From Patescibacteria group bacterium (GTDB lineage Bacteria > Patescibacteriota > Patescibacteriia > 2-12-FULL-57-11): 64,000 nucleotides of DNA. How positions within the stretch are numbered: the stretch's first letter is position 1; each line of letters opens with the position of its first letter. Shown piece after piece: positions 979-62,996 of the stretch. The stretch spans positions 594,893 to 658,892 of the forward strand of contig SCUL01000002.1 in NCBI GenBank assembly GCA_004297205.1. Reading direction: 5' to 3'. Both the position numbers and the translations under genes were made by a program. Below the pieces are notes generated by a model. That model was not told the origin of the DNA. It was given only the letters and a program-made list of their open reading frames with translations, and made no database searches.

Positions 979-994
979 TGTTTCACGTGAAACA
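979..994. promoter_or_regulatory. parS: parS centromere-like site (TGTTTCACGTGAAACA, perfect consensus)
   Basis: 16-bp perfect palindrome identical to the canonical ParB-binding parS consensus TGTTNCACGTGAAACA. Confidence 0.75.
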
Positions 995-1019
995 TTCTGC
1001 TCTCAGCGCCTCTCCCGTT

Positions 1020-1035
1020 TGTTTCACGTGAAACA
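1020..1035. promoter_or_regulatory. parS: parS site (TGTTTCACGTGAAACA)
   Basis: Second perfect copy 41 bp from the first. Confidence 0.75.
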
Positions 1036-1064
1036 AAACACCCACCGGATCGGTGAGTGTTTTG

Positions 1065-1140
1065 TGGTGGACCGTAAGGGATTCGAACCCTTCACCTCTT
1101 CCATGCCATGGAAGCGCTCTACCAAATGAGCTAACGGCCC
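1065..1140 (-). tRNA. tRNA-Ala (anticodon GGC)
   Basis: Minus-strand cloverleaf: 5' GGGCCGT with G3:U70, anticodon loop ATGGCAT, T arm GGTTCGAATCC, 3' ACGGTCC-A-CCA. Confidence 0.8.
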
Positions 1141-1196
1141 GTGGATAAGTTGTGACTGTCGTTATTTGTCTACACAAGCGTAGACATTTGTTCTTC

Positions 1197-1271
1197 TGGT
1201 GCCCCCGGCACGAATCGAACGTACATCCACCCCTTAGGACGGGGTTGTTCTATCCGTTGAACTACAGGGGC
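1197..1271 (-). tRNA. tRNA-Arg (anticodon CCT)
   Basis: Minus-strand cloverleaf GCCCCTGTAGTTCAACGGATAGAAC...GTCCTAA...GTTCGATTCGTGCCGGGGGCACCA; anticodon loop GTCCTAA. Confidence 0.75.
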
Positions 1272-1379
1272 TAGGGAATGAGGCGCGAGAGCTTGCTCTC
1301 AGCGCCGAGCGAGTGCAGGCTCCGTATCGGTCGCTGCGCCCGATACGGGGTACATCGGCTCGATGAGACTTTCACAAAT

Positions 1380-1395
1380 TGTTTCACACGAAACA
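1380..1395. promoter_or_regulatory. degenerate parS-like site (TGTTTCACACGAAACA)
   Basis: Two central mismatches to the parS consensus; 7 bp from the next perfect copy. Confidence 0.4.
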
Positions 1396-1402
1396 ATTTG
1401 GA

Positions 1403-1418
1403 TGTTTCACGTGAAACA
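1403..1418. promoter_or_regulatory. parS: parS site (TGTTTCACGTGAAACA)
   Basis: Third perfect consensus copy (embedded in ATGTTTCACGTGAAACAT). Confidence 0.75.
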
Positions 1419-9651: not shown

Positions 9652-9700
9652 CGGTCCTCCCCGTCGACCGTACCGCGTCCGCCGGAATAAAAAAAGCGCG
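9652..9700 (-). terminator. Putative terminator after the 305-aa gene
   Basis: GC hairpin followed by T7 on the minus strand (plus-strand AAAAAAAGCGCGCTCGGAGAG...). Confidence 0.4.
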
Positions 9701-9868
9701 CTCGGAGAGTGCCTCACGCATCGGCGAACCGATGTGTGGGAACCCCCCGAGCGCGTGGGGATGCCTGCGGTGATCGCCGTCCGGCGATCGGTGCAGGCAT
9801 GTCCTGCCGTACTGCGTGGCAGGACCCGCCGCTTCCCCCGGCGACGGCCGACGCGACCTGCCGTGCGA

Positions 9869-10786
9869 TCAGGCGGAGAAGGCGGCCTGCGCGCCCGCGG
9901 GCAGGGGGTTGCCCTGGCGCGGGTAGGTGCGGATCTCCTTCGTGCCGTTGCTGGCGCGACCGATCGACGAGACGAACTGCTTGTTGGTCGTGTGGCCGAT
10001 GTAGTACTCGCCGTCGCCCTGCTTGGCGGGCCCGACGAGGATGTCGCCCTTCGGGTTGCGCGTGAGCAGCCCGGTGAGGTCGACCTTCTGGTAGCGGAAG
10101 TCCTCGCGCGTCACGACGACCGTGCCGCTCTCGAGGTCCGTCTTCGAGAGGAACGCGAGGTTCGCCCCGAAGTCGGCCTTCTCGGTCCAGCGGTTCTCCG
10201 GCAGGATGCGGCCCTTCTCGTCCACCGGCGTGAAGACCATGCGGTTGCCGAGCGTCCCGATCGCGCCGACCGAGCCGAGGAGCCGGATGTTCCGGATGTC
10301 CCACTCGCGGCCGGCGCTGATCTTGTGCATGCCCTCCGTCGTGCCGATGAAGCTCTCGACCGGCTTGTGGCCGTGCCGGAGCGCCAGCGCCGTGCAGCCG
10401 TACTTGCCGGCCGTGCGGTGCGCGTCCGCGACCATGAAGAGCATCGACTGCACGCACCCGAGGAGCTTGGTCAGCGGGTGTCCCTTCCCGAGCGCGCTGC
10501 CCGCGAGGATGTGCTCGAGACCGCTCTCGACGGCGAGGTGGAGCTTGCCCCCGTCGGTCTCCATCCACGCCACCTCGAGGAAGTTGCCGATCTCCTCGTC
10601 CGCGACCGGATCGTGGGAGGCCTCGTCCGCGACCTCGCCCCACCGCAGGAAGACCTGCTCGCCGTCCGGCGCGATCGCCAGCTGGCGGAGGTTCCCCGCG
10701 GTCACCTGCTTCTGCATGATGAGCGCGATCGCCTCGGAGATGGCCACGGTGCGGGCCTGGGTGTTCGACTTCTGGTAATGATGCAT
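9869..10786 (-). CDS. Hypothetical 305-aa cytoplasmic protein, no recognisable family
   Basis: Only frame in this region with a normal amino-acid composition (the other frames are Arg/Gly/Pro-rich artefacts). GGAGG RBS 9 nt upstream of the ATG. Preceded by a ~460-nt non-coding leader. Confidence 0.65.
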   Translation of the reverse strand: MHHYQKSNTQARTVAISEAIALIMQKQVTAGNLRQLAIAPDGEQVFLRWGEVADEASHDPVADEEIGNFLEVAWMETDGGKLHLAVESGLEHILAGSALGKGHPLTKLLGCVQSMLFMVADAHRTAGKYGCTALALRHGHKPVESFIGTTEGMHKISAGREWDIRNIRLLGSVGAIGTLGNRMVFTPVDEKGRILPENRWTEKADFGANLAFLSKTDLESGTVVVTREDFRYQKVDLTGLLTRNPKGDILVGPAKQGDGEYYIGHTTNKQFVSSIGRASNGTKEIRTYPRQGNPLPAGAQAAFSA

Positions 10787-15177: not shown

Positions 15178-16323
15178 CTACACCTTGATGGGCATCACCA
15201 GGTACAGGTAGTCGGCGGTAGCGGCCTGCGGCGTAATCAGGCAGGGCGCGTTGGCGTCGATCACCTGGAGCTTCACTTCAGACAGGTCCATGGCGTTCAA
15301 CCCATCGAGCAGATAGCGGTAGTTGAGGGTGATGGTGTTCTGGTCGCCCTTGATCTCCGTGGGCGTCAGGACTGCCTCCTGCTCGCCGACCTGGCTGTCG
15401 GTAGCGGAGAGCTTGAGCGTGCCTTCGGAGGGTTCATAGGTGAAATGGACGTCGTACAGGCCGGTCCGGGAGAAGAGCGCCGCCGCCTTCACGGCTTTGA
15501 TGAGCTGGTCGCGGCTGAGCACGGCAAAGGTCCGCGCCTTGTCCGGGATGACCGCCCGGTATTCCGGATAGTTCCCCTCGATGGTGCGCGAGACCACCTC
15601 GACCGCGTCGTAGACGAACAGAATCTGCGAGTCGGACAGCGCGATCTCGAGGGTGGCCGGGCTGTCCGGACCGTCCTTGAGCGAGGACAAGATGCGCTGG
15701 ACTTCGGCCAAGGTCCGGGCCGGAACGATGACCGAGCGCTCGCCGGCCGGTTTCCCGCCTTCGTGGAGCGCCACGCGGGCCTCGGACAGGCGGTAGGAGT
15801 CGGTCGCGGCAAAGATCAGCGTCCCGTTCGGACCGTCCGGCGAGAAGCGGAGCAAAACGCCGGAAATCTCAGGGCGCGACTCGTTCGGGGAGACGGCGAA
15901 GATGACGCGCGAGACCGCCCGGCGAAAATCGGAGACCAGCACCCGGAACGAGGAATCGCGGGACACCTTGGGGATGAGCGGAAATTCAGAGGAGGGCAGC
16001 CCTTTGATCTTGGTGCGGCTGGATCCCGACGAGACGGTGGCGGTTTCGCCGTCGGCGGTCAGGTCGACCCGGTCGCCGGTAAGCAATCCCACGTAGTCGG
16101 CCAAGAGGCGCGAGGGCAGCGTGCATTCGCCGGGCTCGTCGACCTTGCCGCGCACCTGGACGGTCACGGCGATCTCCAAGTTGGTCGTCGCCAGCTGGAT
16201 CGATTTGTCCTCGACCTTGATCAAGACGTTATTCAAGATCGGTAGGTTCACGTTCTTCGTGGCGATGTGGCTGACGGCCGCCAGGCCCTGGATCAAATTT
16301 TCCTGTGTGCACGAGAATTTCAT
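15178..16323 (-). CDS. dnaN: DNA polymerase III beta sliding clamp
   Basis: 381 aa with the beta-clamp three-domain pattern; immediately downstream of dnaA. Confidence 0.95.
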   Translation of the reverse strand: MKFSCTQENLIQGLAAVSHIATKNVNLPILNNVLIKVEDKSIQLATTNLEIAVTVQVRGKVDEPGECTLPSRLLADYVGLLTGDRVDLTADGETATVSSGSSRTKIKGLPSSEFPLIPKVSRDSSFRVLVSDFRRAVSRVIFAVSPNESRPEISGVLLRFSPDGPNGTLIFAATDSYRLSEARVALHEGGKPAGERSVIVPARTLAEVQRILSSLKDGPDSPATLEIALSDSQILFVYDAVEVVSRTIEGNYPEYRAVIPDKARTFAVLSRDQLIKAVKAAALFSRTGLYDVHFTYEPSEGTLKLSATDSQVGEQEAVLTPTEIKGDQNTITLNYRYLLDGLNAMDLSEVKLQVIDANAPCLITPQAATADYLYLVMPIKV

Positions 16324-16555
16324 GTGGATCGGTATATATATCCAATAGACGTAATCGGCGTGGGGATACCGGGGATAACCCCGAAATTTGCCGACATGTC
16401 CTCACGATTCATGAACAAGCCCTTGGGGACGACGACCTGCACGGACTGTCGACGGACAGGGGACCGCCGTTTCCGAGCTGCCGCGCCTGGGGATGACGGT
16501 CCTCCTTATCCCCATCGCCATCCTCGGGTGCGCAGCTCTTTTCCCCAACCTGTCC
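16324..16555. promoter_or_regulatory. oriC: oriC-like dnaA-dnaN spacer: AT-rich DUE candidate plus DnaA-box-like repeats
   Basis: GTATATATATCC AT tract. Four 9-mers of the form TGGGGAT(A/G)(A/C): TGGGGATAC, GGGGATAAC, TGGGGATGA, and TTATCCCCA in reverse complement. TGTGGATCG overlaps the dnaN start. Confidence 0.55.
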
Positions 16556-17959
16556 TCACGCCGCGTGGTAGACGCGCTCCTTGAGGAGGGACAAATCTTG
16601 TCGCAGCTTCTCATCCTTCTCGACCATCAGGCCGATCTTCGTACAGGCGTGGATGGCGGTGGTGTGGTCGCGGCCGCCGATCTCGGAACCGATGGCCGGG
16701 AATGAGGCTTTCATCTCTTCGCGCATCAGGAACATCAGGACCTGGCGGGGGAAGGCCAGCTTCTTTTCGCGGCTCTTGCCGAGCAGGTCATCGATCTTCA
16801 GGTCGTAGTAGGCGGCGACGGTGGCGATCAGCTGGCGCGCCGTGATCGTTTTTTTGGCTGGGTTGACGGAATAGCTGGAGATGATGTTTTTCACTGTCTC
16901 GACCGTCGGCGGAATGTTCTTGAACTGGTGGTAGGCGTGGATCTTGTTGAGGGCGCCTTCGAGCTCGCGGACGTTCGAGGTCACCCCGGCGGCGATCGTC
17001 GTCAGGATGTCGTCCGAGAGGTGCACGCCCTTCTCCTGGCACTTGGAGCGCAGAATGGCGATGCGGGTTTCGAGGTCCGGCGGGCTGACGTCGATGACCA
17101 TGCCCATCTCGAGCCGGCTCACCAGCCGCTCTTGAATGGTGGGGATGCTCTTGGGCGGACGGTCCGAGGACAGCACCACCTGGCGGTTCTCCTGGTGGAG
17201 GGCGTTGAAGGTGTGGAAGAACTCCTCCTGAGTGGATTCTTTGTTGGCCAGGAATTGGATGTCATCGACGATCAGGAGATCCACGGTCCGGTAGCGGTCC
17301 TTGAACTCCTTGGCCAAACCGGCGCGGACCGCGGCGATGTAGTCATTCGTAAACTGCTCGCTGGAGACGTAGAGCACCCGTGCGCCGGGGTTCTTTTCCA
17401 GCATTTTGTTGCCGATGGCCTGCAGCAGGTGGGTTTTGCCGAGTCCGACGCCGCCGTGCAGGTAGAGCGGGTTGTATTTTCGCCCCGGCGCGTCGGCCAC
17501 GGCCTGGGCCGCGGCGTGCGCCAGCTCGTTTCCTTTGCCGACGACGAAGCTCTCAAAGGTGTAGTGGCGGCGGAAGCCGCGCTCACCGGCCGGCTCCGTC
17601 TCCATGGCCTGCGGCATCTCGGGCATGGCCGGGACGTCGGTCACGGCGACGGCCTGCGAGACCGTTATCGCGGCCTGGGTGCGCATCGGCTCGCCCGCGC
17701 TGCGCGTCTCGACGCGGTACTGCACGTCGCGGATCGGGGCATTCAAAATGTTCTGGAGCGCTTTCAGGATTGCTGAGTGGTACTTCTTTTCAAGCCAGGC
17801 CTTCGTGAAGGCGTTGGGGACCGAGATCGTGATCCGCGCTTCCTCCATCTCCGAGATGAAGGTGCTCTTGAACCAGGTTGTGAAATTGGCCTTGGACAGG
17901 GCGAGTTCCAACTCCCCGAGCGCCGCCTGCCAGAGTTGTTGCGGGGTCATGGACGTCAT
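16556..17959 (-). CDS. dnaA: Chromosomal replication initiator DnaA
   Basis: AAA+ Walker A GGVGLGKTHLL, sensor motifs, and the C-terminal DNA-binding domain (LIATVAAYYDLKIDDLLGKSREK). Confidence 0.97.
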   Translation of the reverse strand: MTSMTPQQLWQAALGELELALSKANFTTWFKSTFISEMEEARITISVPNAFTKAWLEKKYHSAILKALQNILNAPIRDVQYRVETRSAGEPMRTQAAITVSQAVAVTDVPAMPEMPQAMETEPAGERGFRRHYTFESFVVGKGNELAHAAAQAVADAPGRKYNPLYLHGGVGLGKTHLLQAIGNKMLEKNPGARVLYVSSEQFTNDYIAAVRAGLAKEFKDRYRTVDLLIVDDIQFLANKESTQEEFFHTFNALHQENRQVVLSSDRPPKSIPTIQERLVSRLEMGMVIDVSPPDLETRIAILRSKCQEKGVHLSDDILTTIAAGVTSNVRELEGALNKIHAYHQFKNIPPTVETVKNIISSYSVNPAKKTITARQLIATVAAYYDLKIDDLLGKSREKKLAFPRQVLMFLMREEMKASFPAIGSEIGGRDHTTAIHACTKIGLMVEKDEKLRQDLSLLKERVYHAA

Positions 17960-18165: not shown

Positions 18166-18306
18166 ATGCCGAAGCGCACATATCAGCCGAAGAAGCGGAA
18201 GCGCGCACGTACCCACGGATTCCGGGTCCGTATGCGGACCAAGAACGGCCGAAAAGTGCTGAAGAGCCGCCGCGCCAAGGGCCGTAAGCGCGTGAGCGTT
18301 CAGTAG
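18166..18306 (+). CDS. rpmH: 50S ribosomal protein L34
   Basis: [42 protein letters not shown] matches L34 almost residue for residue. The track ORF is extended upstream. Confidence 0.95.
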
Positions 18307-18344
18307 AGACGGGGGCGGGGGGTTTCCCGCCCTTCGTCGTTTCT

Positions 18345-18692
18345 ATGTTGTCCGCCGACTTCCGCCTCCGTAAGAAGACCGACATCGACCGGGTCTGGAA
18401 AAAGGGCCGGAGCTTTGCCACACCTCTTTTTTCGCTGAAGATAGCCAAAAACGACCTTCCGGTGAGCCGCTTTGCCGTGGTCATCGGCACCAAGGTCAAC
18501 AAGCGGGCGGTGGTTCGAAATCTGGCCAAGCGTCGGTTGCGTGAGGCCATCCGGCTCCTCGGACCGCGGATCGTGGCCGGGCAGGACGTCATCGTCATGG
18601 GACGCGGCAAGATCGCGGACACCACCTACGACGAGATCAGTCGCACCATCCGTTTCGCCTTCGAAAAGAGCGGTCTCCTGAAGAACGTATGA
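18345..18692 (+). CDS. rnpA: RNase P protein component
   Basis: 115-aa basic protein following rpmH; conserved RNR-like block and overall RnpA pattern. Confidence 0.85.
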
Positions 18693-18931
18693 TCCGCGCC
18701 GGCGTGCTGCTCGGCATCCGTCTCTACCAGCGGACGCTGTCCATCGACCACGGCCTGCTCCGGTTCGTCTATCCGGGCGGCGCCTGCAAGTTCTATCCGA
18801 GCTGCTCTGAGTACGGTTACCGCTCCATTGAGCGCTTCGGCCTCGTGCGCGGTTCCTGGTTGGCAGTGAGACGTGTTCTGCGCTGTCACCCCTGGAGTCC
18901 GGGCGGGGTCGACGAGATTCCGGAACACTAA
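18689..18931 (+). CDS. yidD: Membrane protein insertion efficiency factor YidD
   Basis: [16 protein letters not shown] motif. Overlaps the rnpA stop. No yidC follows. Confidence 0.85.
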
Positions 18932-32295: not shown

Positions 32296-32667
32296 TTATG
32301 CTTCTTGCGTGAGCCGTTTCTTGCACTCAATGCAGGCGGAGGAGGTCGGACGGGCCAGGAGCCGCTTGGCGTCGATTTCCTTACCGCAGTATTTGCAGAC
32401 GCCGTAGGTTCCCTTGGTGATGCGCTCCAGGGTCTTTTTGACGTCGCGCAGCGCCGCTTCGAGGGTCCGCTCCAGGGTCAGATTGGTGGAGTAGGTTTCG
32501 ACTTCCGCGGCATTCTCATCTTCTTTGTCGCCAATCTGCGGGAACTCAGCGTTGAAATCGTCCTTGTTCTTTGGATTACGGTGCGTGAAGGCAGCGAGCT
32601 GGCCTTCCAGCTGCACCTTTTCCGCTTCCAGCTTGGTTTCGATCTCTTTTAGGGTCTTTTTGTCCAT
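32296..32667 (-). CDS. DksA/TraR-family C4 zinc-finger protein
   Basis: C-terminal CKYCGKEI...CIEC four-Cys finger and an N-terminal coiled coil. Start at MDKKTLKEI. Confidence 0.75.
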   Translation of the reverse strand: MDKKTLKEIETKLEAEKVQLEGQLAAFTHRNPKNKDDFNAEFPQIGDKEDENAAEVETYSTNLTLERTLEAALRDVKKTLERITKGTYGVCKYCGKEIDAKRLLARPTSSACIECKKRLTQEA

Positions 32668-32721
32668 AAGGGGTGGCACAAAGCCGGAAACACCCGGATT
32701 CCCCAAAGAATACCGTGTTAT

Positions 32722-32787
32722 CGGAAAAAAAAGAAGAGGCGCAGATAGTTGGCCATACATAGAAATGGATGTGCCTCACTGCGCCTC
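32722..32787 (-). terminator. Extended hairpin plus U8 tract on the minus strand, 55-120 nt upstream of the dksA-like start codon
   Basis: Stem GAGGCGCAG...CTGCGCCTC (9 bp, long loop) followed on the minus strand by TTCTTTTTTTTCC. Confidence 0.45.
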
Positions 32788-33108
32788 GCGGCGCTGCGCC
32801 GGGGATGACTCCCCGGGGCCAGGGATCCATGTATTGGATCTCTCGCCTAGGGGAGTAATACCACAAGCATTGCAGTGCCAGGTCCATCTCCTCAACCGCC
32901 CTGAGGGCTGTTCGACCCCTCGACCCACGCGTAACCGTGAAGTCATAGTGAGGGGAAGCCACTCAACAGTTTCCTTTTCTTTTTGTTTCAAAGGGAACGG
33001 GAGAGCAGTAGAGGAGAGAGAAATACGCCCCTCCGGACGAGGAACATCTCTCTACAGGACCGCTATCGCTTTCAAGGAACGATGGTACCTTTCTGAGGGT
33101 ACGAACAC

Positions 33109-33137
33109 ATAGTATCAAAAAAGTGTTCGATTGTCAA
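33109..33137 (-). promoter_or_regulatory. Near-consensus sigma70-type promoter on the minus strand (TTGACA-17-TACTAT)
   Basis: -35 TTGACA at 33132-33137 and -10 TACTAT at 33109-33114 with a 17-bp spacer; directs transcription toward the terminator at 32722-32787 and the dksA-lspA operon. Confidence 0.55.
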
Positions 33138-33210
33138 CTCTGCTGGGTTGAGACAAAAAGGTGCCAAATGAGGCACGAACATCACGTTTCAACACCAGTT
33201 CTCAATACAA

Positions 33211-33275
33211 TGTGGATAAGTCTGTGGATGAAGTGGCAAAATTGGGGATAAGACCGTGGAAAAAATGTGGTTACC
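33211..33275. promoter_or_regulatory. Cluster of DnaA-box-like 9-mers in an AT-rich island
   Basis: TGTGGATAA (perfect DnaA box) at 33211, TGTGGATGA at 33224, GGGGATAAG at 33244, TGTGGTTAC at 33267. Confidence 0.45.
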
Positions 33276-39389: not shown

Positions 39390-40367
39390 ATGGCAGTACC
39401 GAACATCCGCACCTTGCTCGAGCAGTTCCTCGACCACCTGGAGATCGAGAAGAACCGTTCCTTGCGCACCCGCACCAACTACCAGTTTTACCTGGCGCGT
39501 TTCTTTGATTGGGCCAAGAGTCAGAACGCCAACAAAGACGTGACACCCGCCGGCATCTCCGACGAGTTGGTGCGCGAATTCCGTCTCTGGCTGAACCGCG
39601 TCAAGAACGGCCGCGGTGAAGAGCTCAAAAAGAACACCCAAAATTACCACCTCATCGCCCTGCGCGCTTTCCTGAAGTACCTCGCGAAGCGCGACGTAAA
39701 ATCCTTGCCTGCCGAAAAGATCGAGCTCGGCAAAATGCCGGAGCGCATGGTGGCCTTTCTCGAAGCCACCGACCTGGAGCGTCTCTTGGCGGCGCCGCTC
39801 AAAGACGGCTCGGAGGGGAAGGCCGATGTCATCCGTCTGCGCGACAAGGCCATTCTTGAATTGCTGTTCTCGACCGGGCTGCGCGTCTCGGAATTGGCCG
39901 GCCTCCAGAAAGAGGAGCTCCACCTCGACCGCGACGAGTTCTCGGTGCGCGGCAAAGGCCGCAAAGTCCGCATCGTCTTCCTGTCCGAGCAGGCCAAGTA
40001 TTGGATCAAGCAGTACCTGGAGAAGCGCCGCGACGTTTCGCCGTTCCTGTTCGTAGCCCACGACCGCGCCCAGAAGGGGCGGGACGACGTGGACGCCTCG
40101 GGACTCACGCCGCGCTCCGTGGAGCGGCTCGTGGAGCGCTACAGCCGTGCCGCCGGCATCCCGAAGCACATCACGCCGCATTCGCTCCGCCACACCTTCG
40201 CTACCGACCTGCTCATGAACGGCGCCGACATCCGTTCCGTGCAGACGCTCTTGGGCCACGCTTCGATCACCACGACCCAGATCTACACCCACATCACCAA
40301 CCAGCAGCTCAAGGAAGTGCATCAGGCCTTTCATGCCGCCAGACGCGGGAAGAAGGGGAAGGGTTGA
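39390..40367 (+). CDS. Tyrosine recombinase, XerC/XerD family
   Basis: N-terminal core-binding domain, catalytic R...HxxR...Y (RHTFATDLL...LGHASITTTQIYTHI). Confidence 0.85.
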   Translation: MAVPNIRTLLEQFLDHLEIEKNRSLRTRTNYQFYLARFFDWAKSQNANKDVTPAGISDELVREFRLWLNRVKNGRGEELKKNTQNYHLIALRAFLKYLAKRDVKSLPAEKIELGKMPERMVAFLEATDLERLLAAPLKDGSEGKADVIRLRDKAILELLFSTGLRVSELAGLQKEELHLDRDEFSVRGKGRKVRIVFLSEQAKYWIKQYLEKRRDVSPFLFVAHDRAQKGRDDVDASGLTPRSVERLVERYSRAAGIPKHITPHSLRHTFATDLLMNGADIRSVQTLLGHASITTTQIYTHITNQQLKEVHQAFHAARRGKKGKG

Positions 40368-40838: not shown

Positions 40839-40915
40839 GCCCCGGTAGCTCAACCGGATAGAGCAACTCGTTTCTACCGAGAAGGTTGGGGGTTCGACTC
40901 CCTCCCGGGGCACCA
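40839..40915 (+). tRNA. tRNA-Arg (anticodon TCT)
   Basis: Cloverleaf GCCCCGGTAGCTCAACCGGATAGAGC...TTTCTAC...GGTTCGACTCCCTCCCGGGGCACCA. Confidence 0.75.
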
Positions 40916-61973: not shown

Positions 61974-62048
61974 CGGTCCGTAGCTCAACGGTAGAGCGGT
62001 CGTCTTATACACGACTGGTTGCTGGTTCGAATCCAGCCGGACCGACCA
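61974..62048 (+). tRNA. tRNA-Ile2-like with anticodon TAT (UAU)
   Basis: Cloverleaf CGGTCCG-TA-GCTCAACGGTAGAGC-G-GTCGT-CTTATAC-ACGAC-TGGTT-GCTGGTTCGAATCCAGC-CGGACCG-A-CCA; T arm nearly identical to E. coli ileX. Confidence 0.7.
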
Positions 62049-62611: not shown

Positions 62612-62686
62612 TGGTGCCGGGGGCCAGAATTGAACTGGCGACGCCAGCCTCTTCAGGGCTGCGCTCTACCACTGAGCTACCCCGGC
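62612..62686 (-). tRNA. tRNA-Phe (anticodon GAA)
   Basis: GCCGGGGTAGCTCAGTGGTAGAGC...CTGAAGA...GGTTCAATTCTGGCCCCCGGCACCA. Confidence 0.85.
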
Positions 62687-62688
62687 TC

Positions 62689-62765
62689 TGGTGGGCGGCA
62701 GAGGAGTCGAACCTCTGACCTTCACAATGTCAATGTGACGCTCTAACCAACTGAGCTAGCCGCCC
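62689..62765 (-). tRNA. tRNA-Val (anticodon GAC)
   Basis: GGGCGGCTAGCTCAGTTGGTTAGAGC...TTGACAT...GGTTCGACTCCTCTGCCGCCCACCA. Confidence 0.85.
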
Positions 62766-62805
62766 AAACGCGGGAGCAGAATACCCAAGGAGCGCCGGTC
62801 TGTAA

Positions 62806-62838
62806 AGAAGAGCGCCCCTCTTTCGAGGGGCGCTCTTC
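62806..62838 (-). terminator. Hairpin 3' of the tRNA-Pro/tRNA-Gly pair
   Basis: AGAGCGCCCCTC-TTTCG-GAGGGGCGCTCT perfect 12-bp stem. Confidence 0.5.
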
Positions 62839-62913
62839 TGGAGCGGGCGAGGGGAATCGAACCCCTATCAGCAGGTTGGAAACCTGCGGTAATAGCCATT
62901 ATACGACGCCCGC
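62839..62913 (-). tRNA. tRNA-Gly (anticodon TCC)
   Basis: GCGGGCGTCGTATAATGGCTATTAC...TTTCCAA...GGTTCGATTCCCCTCGCCCGCTCCA. Confidence 0.85.
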
Positions 62914-62920
62914 ATCTTCC

Positions 62921-62996
62921 TGGTCGGGCCGGTGGGACTCGAACCCACGACTTCCTGCTCCCAAAGCAGGCGCGCTACCAACTGCGCTACGGCCCG
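62921..62996 (-). tRNA. tRNA-Pro (anticodon TGG)
   Basis: CGGGCCGTAGCGCAGTTGGTAGCGC...TTTGGGA...GGTTCGAGTCCCACCGGCCCGACCA. Confidence 0.85.

Follow-up and report, generated by a model that had tools for sequence, protein, structure and literature searches.

A conserved cluster of predicted chromosomal parS sites around a tRNA operon in the dnaA region of an uncultured Patescibacterium

The stretch of Patescibacteria DNA analysed here, 64 kb in length and hereafter called the window, contains four parS sites within 440 bp, arranged in pairs on either side of a two-tRNA operon in the neighbourhood of dnaA. The cluster is almost certainly a real, well-conserved, and ordinary parS in a textbook arrangement; to our knowledge, and in the papers we searched, parS has not been described before in this uncultured Patescibacteria (CPR) lineage. 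Very probably, the cluster serves as the chromosomal parS of a ParABS system, at which ParB encoded elsewhere would nucleate, load as CTP-dependent clamps, and form the complex used by ParA. The identification as parS is based on the consensus match, the non-random clustering of the sites, their proximity to the origin, the small number of local copies, and the fact that both position and sequence are conserved. We infer ParB binding, CTP-dependent sliding, and the coupling to ParA by analogy with the established ParABS mechanism.

Results

Three perfect parS palindromes and one degenerate copy

The 16-bp palindrome TGTTTCACGTGAAACA occurs three times without any mismatch in the window, at 979–994 (parS-1), 1020–1035 (parS-2), and 1403–1418 (parS-4). 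The fourth copy at 1380–1395 (parS-3) reads TGTTTCACACGAAACA and deviates from TGTTTCACGTGAAACA by two central mismatches. The four sites, to which no strand is assigned, thus comprise three perfect copies and one two-mismatch copy of a palindrome matching the parS consensus TGTTNCACGTGAAACA, and they span 440 bp (979–1418), exactly at the positions given in the original prediction. The Spo0J/parS consensus of Bacillus subtilis is reportedly tGTTNCACGTGAAACa (Lin & Grossman 1998; Livny et al. 2007). The proposed identity as canonical chromosomal parS was borne out by the exact consensus, by numbers of matches beyond chance, and by the same sites being found at orthologous positions in relatives with RmuC identities down to 51%.

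Apart from these four sites, we found no match with up to three mismatches on either strand of the 64-kb window. Dinucleotide-preserving shuffles gave an expectation of 0.08 matches per window at this threshold, and none of the 100 shuffles reached four matches. From the base composition, the perfect 16-mer is expected 2.5e-6 times per window. A chance origin of the cluster is excluded by these two expectations. Half-sites were not significantly enriched outside the cluster, with 10 found there against 6.5 ± 2.7 expected for the whole window.

The distance between neighbouring sites shows a recurrent value. Centre-to-centre spacings of 40–41 bp, corresponding to about four helical turns, are found in the window (979/1020) as well as in three of the related loci described below (L003, 9406/9447; L002, 9821/9861; L088, 5142/5183), thus across several lineages, at positions that are not orthologous. 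The sequences flanking the sites spaced in this way are unrelated, and recent tandem duplication is therefore not the origin of the spacing. Some plasmid centromeres consist of tandem repeats that contain a 16-bp inverted repeat, among them sopC of the F plasmid, a regular array of 12 repeats with a 43-bp period. Like sopC, the cluster consists of closely spaced palindromic ParB-family sites, and the spacing of roughly 41 bp resembles the 43-bp period. However, the palindrome is different from that of sopC, only pairs are formed here, the flanks are unrelated, and the sequence is that of a chromosomal site.

The parS sites bracket a tRNA operon in a gene-free stretch of low GC content

All four sites are located in a gene-free stretch of 947 bp (631–1577) between a Nudix gene on the minus strand (193–630) as the left neighbour and rmuC on the plus strand (1578–2531), which lies directly to the right of the cluster and served as the syntenic anchor for the comparisons with relatives. 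With a GC content of 49.7%, compared with 63.9% for the window, the stretch has the lowest value among the 14 gene-free gaps longer than 150 bp in the first 40 kb, for which this was measured. The original prediction had described it as a low-GC island. The low GC content stands, whereas the stretch does not appear to be an acquired island, as the synteny of the tRNAs, parS, and rmuC is conserved. The low GC content does not indicate foreign DNA either because a tRNA-bearing non-coding stretch in a genome of 64% GC looks just like this.

ARAGORN and Rfam identified three tRNA genes in the stretch, tRNA-Ala(CGC) (724–797), tRNA-Ala(GGC) (1065–1140), and tRNA-Arg(CCT) (1197–1271), which are the three tRNAs originally named and are all encoded on the minus strand. 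No other RNA was detected with Rfam between 600 and 1600. Together, tRNA-Arg(CCT) and tRNA-Ala(GGC) constitute a two-tRNA operon (1065–1271, minus strand) with one parS pair on either side, so that the order along the minus strand is two candidate promoters, parS-4, parS-3, tRNA-Arg, tRNA-Ala(GGC), terminator, parS-2, and parS-1. The intrinsic terminator of the operon is a minus-strand hairpin with 15-nt arms (1033–1065). Among relatives, its stem sequence varies and the hairpin is kept. Its T-tract runs into parS-2, which starts 29 nt beyond the 3' end of tRNA-Ala(GGC) and abuts the T-tract with its TGTTT half.

All promoter calls in this stretch are consensus matches only. Upstream of tRNA-Arg, we noticed two sigma-70-like candidates on the minus strand, one running from 1574 to 1546 (TTGACC-17-TAATAT) and abutting the rmuC start codon, and the other from 1509 to 1480 (TTCACA-18-CATACT). 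The former has counterparts beside the rmuC start in L003, in L002 (TTGACC-18-TATATT), and in L004 (TTGACG-17-TATAAT), where 11 of the 12 consensus positions are matched. In L008, the best promoter match is found between parS and the tRNA. Transcription from either candidate in the window would cross parS-4 and parS-3 into tRNA-Arg, and the parS-3/parS-4 pair is probably situated within the transcribed tRNA leader. The other tRNA gene, tRNA-Ala(CGC), has a conserved promoter-like site on the minus strand that matches the consensus (844 to 816; TTGACT-17-TACACT) and a terminator hairpin on the same strand (693–725). The parS-1/parS-2 pair sits between the operon terminator and this tRNA-Ala(CGC) promoter, at a distance of 135 bp from the predicted -35 element. 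Contrary to the earlier suggestion that the sites overlap the tRNA promoters, no predicted -35 or -10 element overlaps any of the parS sites.

The element TGCTAATATTA at 1541–1551 matches an extended -10 element for rmuC on the plus strand and also matches the -10 element of the minus-strand candidate (TTGACC-17-TAATAT). It would thereby make a compact face-to-face divergent promoter pair with one common AT-rich element.

Conservation of the cluster in relatives

Two RmuC-anchored scans yielded 160 loci (L002–L161) with flanks of up to 10 kb on each side, and parS was searched with up to two mismatches in 161 rmuC-anchored loci comprising about 2 Mb. The closest RmuC relatives are all metagenome-assembled genomes (MAGs) of Patescibacteria/CPR, among them a Hainich groundwater MAG (L003) with an 89% identical RmuC, a Candidatus Uhrbacteria MAG (L006) with 54%, and Parcubacteria bacterium SG8_24 (L008) with 51% identity. 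According to the entries of a supplementary table, SG8-24 is a high-GC order of the class ABY1 in GTDB. The window therefore probably comes from a Patescibacterium of the ABY1 type. Exact matches to its proteins were confined to short Logan contigs of run SRR8426588, which end inside the window.

We found parS in nine of the 160 loci, representing about six distinct relatives, with RmuC identities of 89–91% (L003, L082, L083), 75% (L002), 59% (L004), 56% (L086), and 51% (L008, L089, L088). In every one of the nine, the parS sites are grouped around the same tRNAs directly upstream of rmuC. L003, L082, and L083 have four sites in the layout of the window; there are three sites in L002 and in L086, two in L004, and three perfect sites each in L008 and L089. 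L088, from a genome of only 42% GC, has four sites, three of which are about 700 bp from the tRNAs. Away from the rmuC-adjacent cluster, parS was not found with up to two mismatches in the about 2 Mb of related loci. In the visible sequence, which includes the 64-kb window and these related loci, the copy number of parS is low and the sites are confined to one locus.

The alignment of five genomes (the window, L003, L002, L004, and L008) shows how much better the sites are preserved than their surroundings. Between the window and L003, the parS sites are 98% identical compared with 67% for the remaining intergenic DNA, and between the window and L002 the corresponding values are 83% and 35%. 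The site at 1020 (parS-2) has orthologues in four of the five genomes and the site at 1380 (parS-3) in all five, making these two the orthologous core sites. Whereas parS-2 is identical in L003, L002, and L008, the core of parS-3, which is positioned upstream of tRNA-Arg, changes from the perfect CACGTG in L004 and L008 to CACATG in L002 and CACACG in the window and L003. The lineage-specific additional site parS-1 has one mismatch in L003, L082, and L083, is reduced to a three-mismatch remnant in L002, and is missing from L004 and L008; parS-4 is restricted to the window, L003, L082, and L083. Judging from these aligned cores, parS-3 is a decaying ancestral site and parS-4 looks like its replacement. 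The decay of parS-3 together with a fresh perfect parS-4 at a distance of 23 bp (centre to centre) fits binding-site turnover with selection for occupancy.

The sites are thus conserved at orthologous positions in nine loci with RmuC identities between 51% and 91%. Their retention, together with the divergence of the surrounding intergenic DNA and the lack of copies elsewhere in these loci, argues for purifying selection on a low-copy site. No parS was found at the rmuC locus in L084, L085, L087, L090, and L005–L007 (RmuC 53–59% identical), and the relatives without parS revealed no weaker or alternative palindromes. Because some relatives at a similar distance lack parS, its location is clade-specific, as would be expected for evolutionarily mobile sites. 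In L084 (contig Ga0187892_10000012; RmuC 59% identical), the tRNAs are kept upstream of rmuC at 9668–9921 with tRNA-Arg(CCT) inverted and no parS, which suggests a local rearrangement plus the loss or relocation of parS.

The perfect parS 16-mer is also found in more than 120 contigs classified as viral in IMG/VR. Among the 120 IMG/VR loci examined (L162–L281), 27 have two to five perfect copies in a tight cluster, for example L182 (2657–3444), L222 (10535–11462), and L249 (276–910). Spo0J- or Soj-like proteins were not found by tblastn in these 120 loci, with no hit below E ~2. These contigs may represent phage- or plasmid-like elements that have host-type parS without a ParB of their own. 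None of the viral contigs with the 16-mer is related to the window.

Location of the cluster relative to the origin of replication

Rightward of rmuC, the window contains rpsT, holA, a gene for a TrmB-type regulator, polA, the gene for PBP1a, dnaN (15178–16323, minus strand), and dnaA (16556–17959, minus strand), with rpmH-rnpA-yidD (about 18167–18931) just to the right of dnaA. The distance from the last parS site to dnaN-dnaA is 15.1 kb, in agreement with the original estimate of about 15 kb from dnaA. The 232-bp spacer between dnaA and dnaN (16324–16555) contains six weak DnaA-box-like 9-mers and an AT-rich tatatatat run. The dnaN-dnaA pair, the boxes in the spacer, and rpmH-rnpA-yidD together mark an origin region, and with these landmarks nearby the proposed origin-proximal position of the parS sites holds.

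The densest cluster of DnaA boxes in the window is, however, not beside dnaA and is denser than that in the dnaA-dnaN spacer. It is located at 33211–33270, where five DnaA-box-like 9-mers on the same strand were found within about 65 bp, namely one perfect TTATCCACA, two with one mismatch, and two with two mismatches. This segment ends a gene-free stretch of 975 nt (32296–33270) with 52.7% GC and no match in Rfam. Its sequence features could be those of oriC, of a DnaA-titrating site, or of a DnaA-regulated promoter. The parS/tRNA stretch itself contains DnaA-box-like motifs with one mismatch at 885–893, 948–956, and 1140–1148, and an AT-rich run at 877–915. We did not adopt an oriC inside this stretch, as the boxes are poorly conserved beyond L003 and gene orientation does not switch there. 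Over the whole window, GC skew follows the coding strand, which is C-rich whichever way the genes point. Because the skew tracks gene orientation and not replication direction over the 64 kb, it was rejected as a locator of the origin. Whichever candidate is oriC, the parS cluster is about 15–32 kb away from it, a distance that is origin-proximal if the genome has a size of ~1.2 Mb, as listed for MAGs of the SG8-24 order.

ParB, ParA, and SMC

Among the about 60 ORFs of the window, no ParA, ParB, or SMC domain was detected with Pfam. Likewise, tblastn searches with Spo0J and Soj identified no homologue in the window, in the flanks of ±10 kb at the 160 rmuC loci, or in the Logan contig L001. 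A homology search with Spo0J returned Bacillus clusters only and was uninformative about CPR. For Southlakia epibionticum, a cultured Patescibacterium, the published Tn-seq tables list SEML1_0183 as ParA (K03496) and SEML1_0184 as ParB (K03497; PF02195 and PF17762), both scored as growth-defect/essential. In that genome, in which dnaA marks position 1, parAB is located at 180 kb, so a location of parAB distant from dnaA is normal in the phylum. As neither the window nor the related flanks contain parB, ParB is documented at the level of the phylum only, by Southlakia epibionticum. Chromosomal parB is present in 84% of bacterial orders according to a recent survey. In the main texts of the literature we searched, we found no specific account of ParB or parS in Patescibacteria/CPR.

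The original prediction also regarded the cluster as a probable SMC loading centre. No entry for SMC, ScpA, ScpB, or K03529 was found in those parts of the Southlakia epibionticum supplementary tables that were available. With no SMC/ScpAB annotation in these tables, the role as an SMC loading centre is unsupported and we do not endorse this part of the prediction.

Discussion

As a chromosomal parS, the cluster would be bound by ParB dimers encoded elsewhere in the genome, which would occupy the three perfect palindromes and bind the degenerate copy less strongly. CTP-bound ParB would then close into clamps sliding onto the flanking DNA, and the clamps would assemble into a single partition complex at a distance of about 15 kb from dnaA. 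The movement of this complex by ParA would segregate the newly replicated origins.

The parS sites of Pseudomonas aeruginosa lie near parAB and are spaced more widely than those in the window. The cluster in the window shares with the chromosomal parS of ParABS systems the identical 16-bp palindrome, the origin-proximal location, a copy number that is low within the visible sequence, and the position conserved in relatives. It is distinguished by all four sites being intergenic and lying within 440 bp around a tRNA operon. Moreover, parAB is not found between -10 and +62 kb here, whereas many model species have at least one parS in or beside parB. Reviews describe parS as inverted repeats of roughly 16 bp near the origin, with one to four in most species and 20 or more in some. 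ParB of P. aeruginosa occupies four clustered parS sites near oriC, the intergenic members of which repress neighbouring genes. The window resembles this case (parS1-4) in having a four-site cluster near oriC, at which one ParB complex is formed in P. aeruginosa, and in its intergenic sites, since some of the P. aeruginosa members are likewise intergenic and upstream of genes. The P. aeruginosa sites are reported only as being in the vicinity of oriC, with their spacing unstated, whereas the sites here are confined to 440 bp, flank tRNA genes, and have no parAB nearby. Four tightly packed sites overlapping tRNA promoter regions had originally been considered unusual. As one to four sites are the norm and P. 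aeruginosa has four, we consider the arrangement compact rather than unusual, and in other contigs perfect sites are packed still more tightly, for example five within 800–900 bp.

The location of the sites around the tRNA operon is most likely explained by the 947-bp stretch being origin-proximal non-coding DNA in a gene-dense genome, and a special tRNA-linked mechanism for the placement of parS is not needed. It is conceivable, albeit unlikely, that ParB-bound sites were selected for a local role, such as regulating or insulating the divergent rmuC and tRNA-Arg/Ala promoters or, if the heavily transcribed tRNA operon blocks the sliding of ParB, providing sites to either side of it, with segregation being secondary or relying on other sites. 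The same bracketing is seen in the nine loci, which stem from about six relatives: one site closely follows the terminator and one or two precede tRNA-Arg. Moreover, parS is separated from the 3' end of tRNA-Ala by 28–29 nt in the window, L003, L002, L008, and L089. This spacing, however, is just the length of the terminator hairpin, and the geometry is not fixed, considering the promoter between parS and the tRNA in L008 and the three remote sites in L088. Two further points could speak for a local role, namely the conserved minus-strand promoter-like sites that precede the parS pair and would put it in the tRNA leader, and the repression of adjacent genes by the intergenic parS3 and parS4 of P. 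aeruginosa. Yet RNA polymerase is hardly slowed by ParB condensates in vitro, as summarised in a review, and no other low-GC non-coding DNA near the origin is as large as this stretch, so that neutral "available space" suffices as an explanation. We consider it improbable as well that the tRNA operon and the flanking parS sites represent a conserved functional module in ABY1-type Patescibacteria, in which the leader transcript would include one site and the terminator T-tract would be fused to another. In such a module, strong tRNA transcription would be coupled to ParB loading and could remove ParB clamps, position them, or set a boundary to the partition complex; alternatively, ParB could tune the expression of the tRNAs and rmuC. 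A rarer variant would be a lineage without ParB in which another protein reads the site.

We know of no other protein family that recognises the parS 16-mer. It seems very unlikely to us that the palindrome serves some other DNA-binding protein as its operator, for example a transcription factor that controls rmuC or the tRNAs, with ParB having been lost and the likeness to parS being inherited or coincidental. Such an operator would agree with ParB not being found in any sequence examined for this lineage, with the intergenic sites near promoters, and with the sporadic loss of parB in many clades noted in the survey. But it would leave the exact 16-bp consensus in three copies here and in many across relatives to be explained, the placement past a terminator is not operator-like, and a cultured representative of the phylum has a ParAB pair that is critical for its fitness. 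Highly improbable, too, is a partition site left by, or still part of, a plasmid or phage that integrated at the tRNA genes, although tRNA genes are common targets of integration, the stretch is low in GC, and many IMG/VR contigs have the same perfect 16-mer, often in tight clusters. The tRNAs, parS, rmuC, rpsT, and holA remain syntenic down to 51% RmuC identity, neither an integrase nor a mobile-element gene adjoins the cluster (38 kb separate it from the closest tyrosine recombinase), direct repeats of the tRNA 3' end were not found, and the viral contigs are unrelated to the window. A genomic island, recognisable by presence/absence polymorphism between relatives, an integrase, and flanking att repeats, is not supported by these observations. 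Chance or a generic REP-like repeat or hairpin, to which only the palindromic form points, is scarcely credible in view of the expectations from shuffling and base composition. In the window the sequence is confined to this locus, and in relatives to the orthologous one, and a loop-less 16-bp palindrome makes no stable hairpin in RNA or DNA. A generic dispersed repeat is ruled out for the visible sequence, given that no 16-mer occurs outside the cluster in the 64 kb or in the about 2 Mb of related loci. Even taken together, a reader other than ParB, a relic of a mobile element, and chance have a low probability.

A chromosomal parS cluster at this location provides a centromere and a landmark of the origin region for uncultured high-GC Patescibacteria, which aids in orienting and checking MAG assemblies. 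That selection maintains the universal parS sequence in the ultra-small CPR bacteria implies that they have a functional ParB. The existing picture of chromosome segregation is unchanged, and the conserved packing of parS around a tRNA operon is the only, mildly new, point.

Other features of the window

A tyrosine recombinase gene with Phage_integrase and SAM-like N-terminal domains (39390–40367) is located 470 bp upstream of tRNA-Arg(TCT) (40839–40915). It could encode a chromosomal XerC/D or mark the edge of an integrated element. Towards the right end of the window, a tRNA-Ile with the anticodon UAU (tat; 61974–62048), an uncommon bacterial way of reading AUA, is adjoined by four further tRNAs at 62612–62996.
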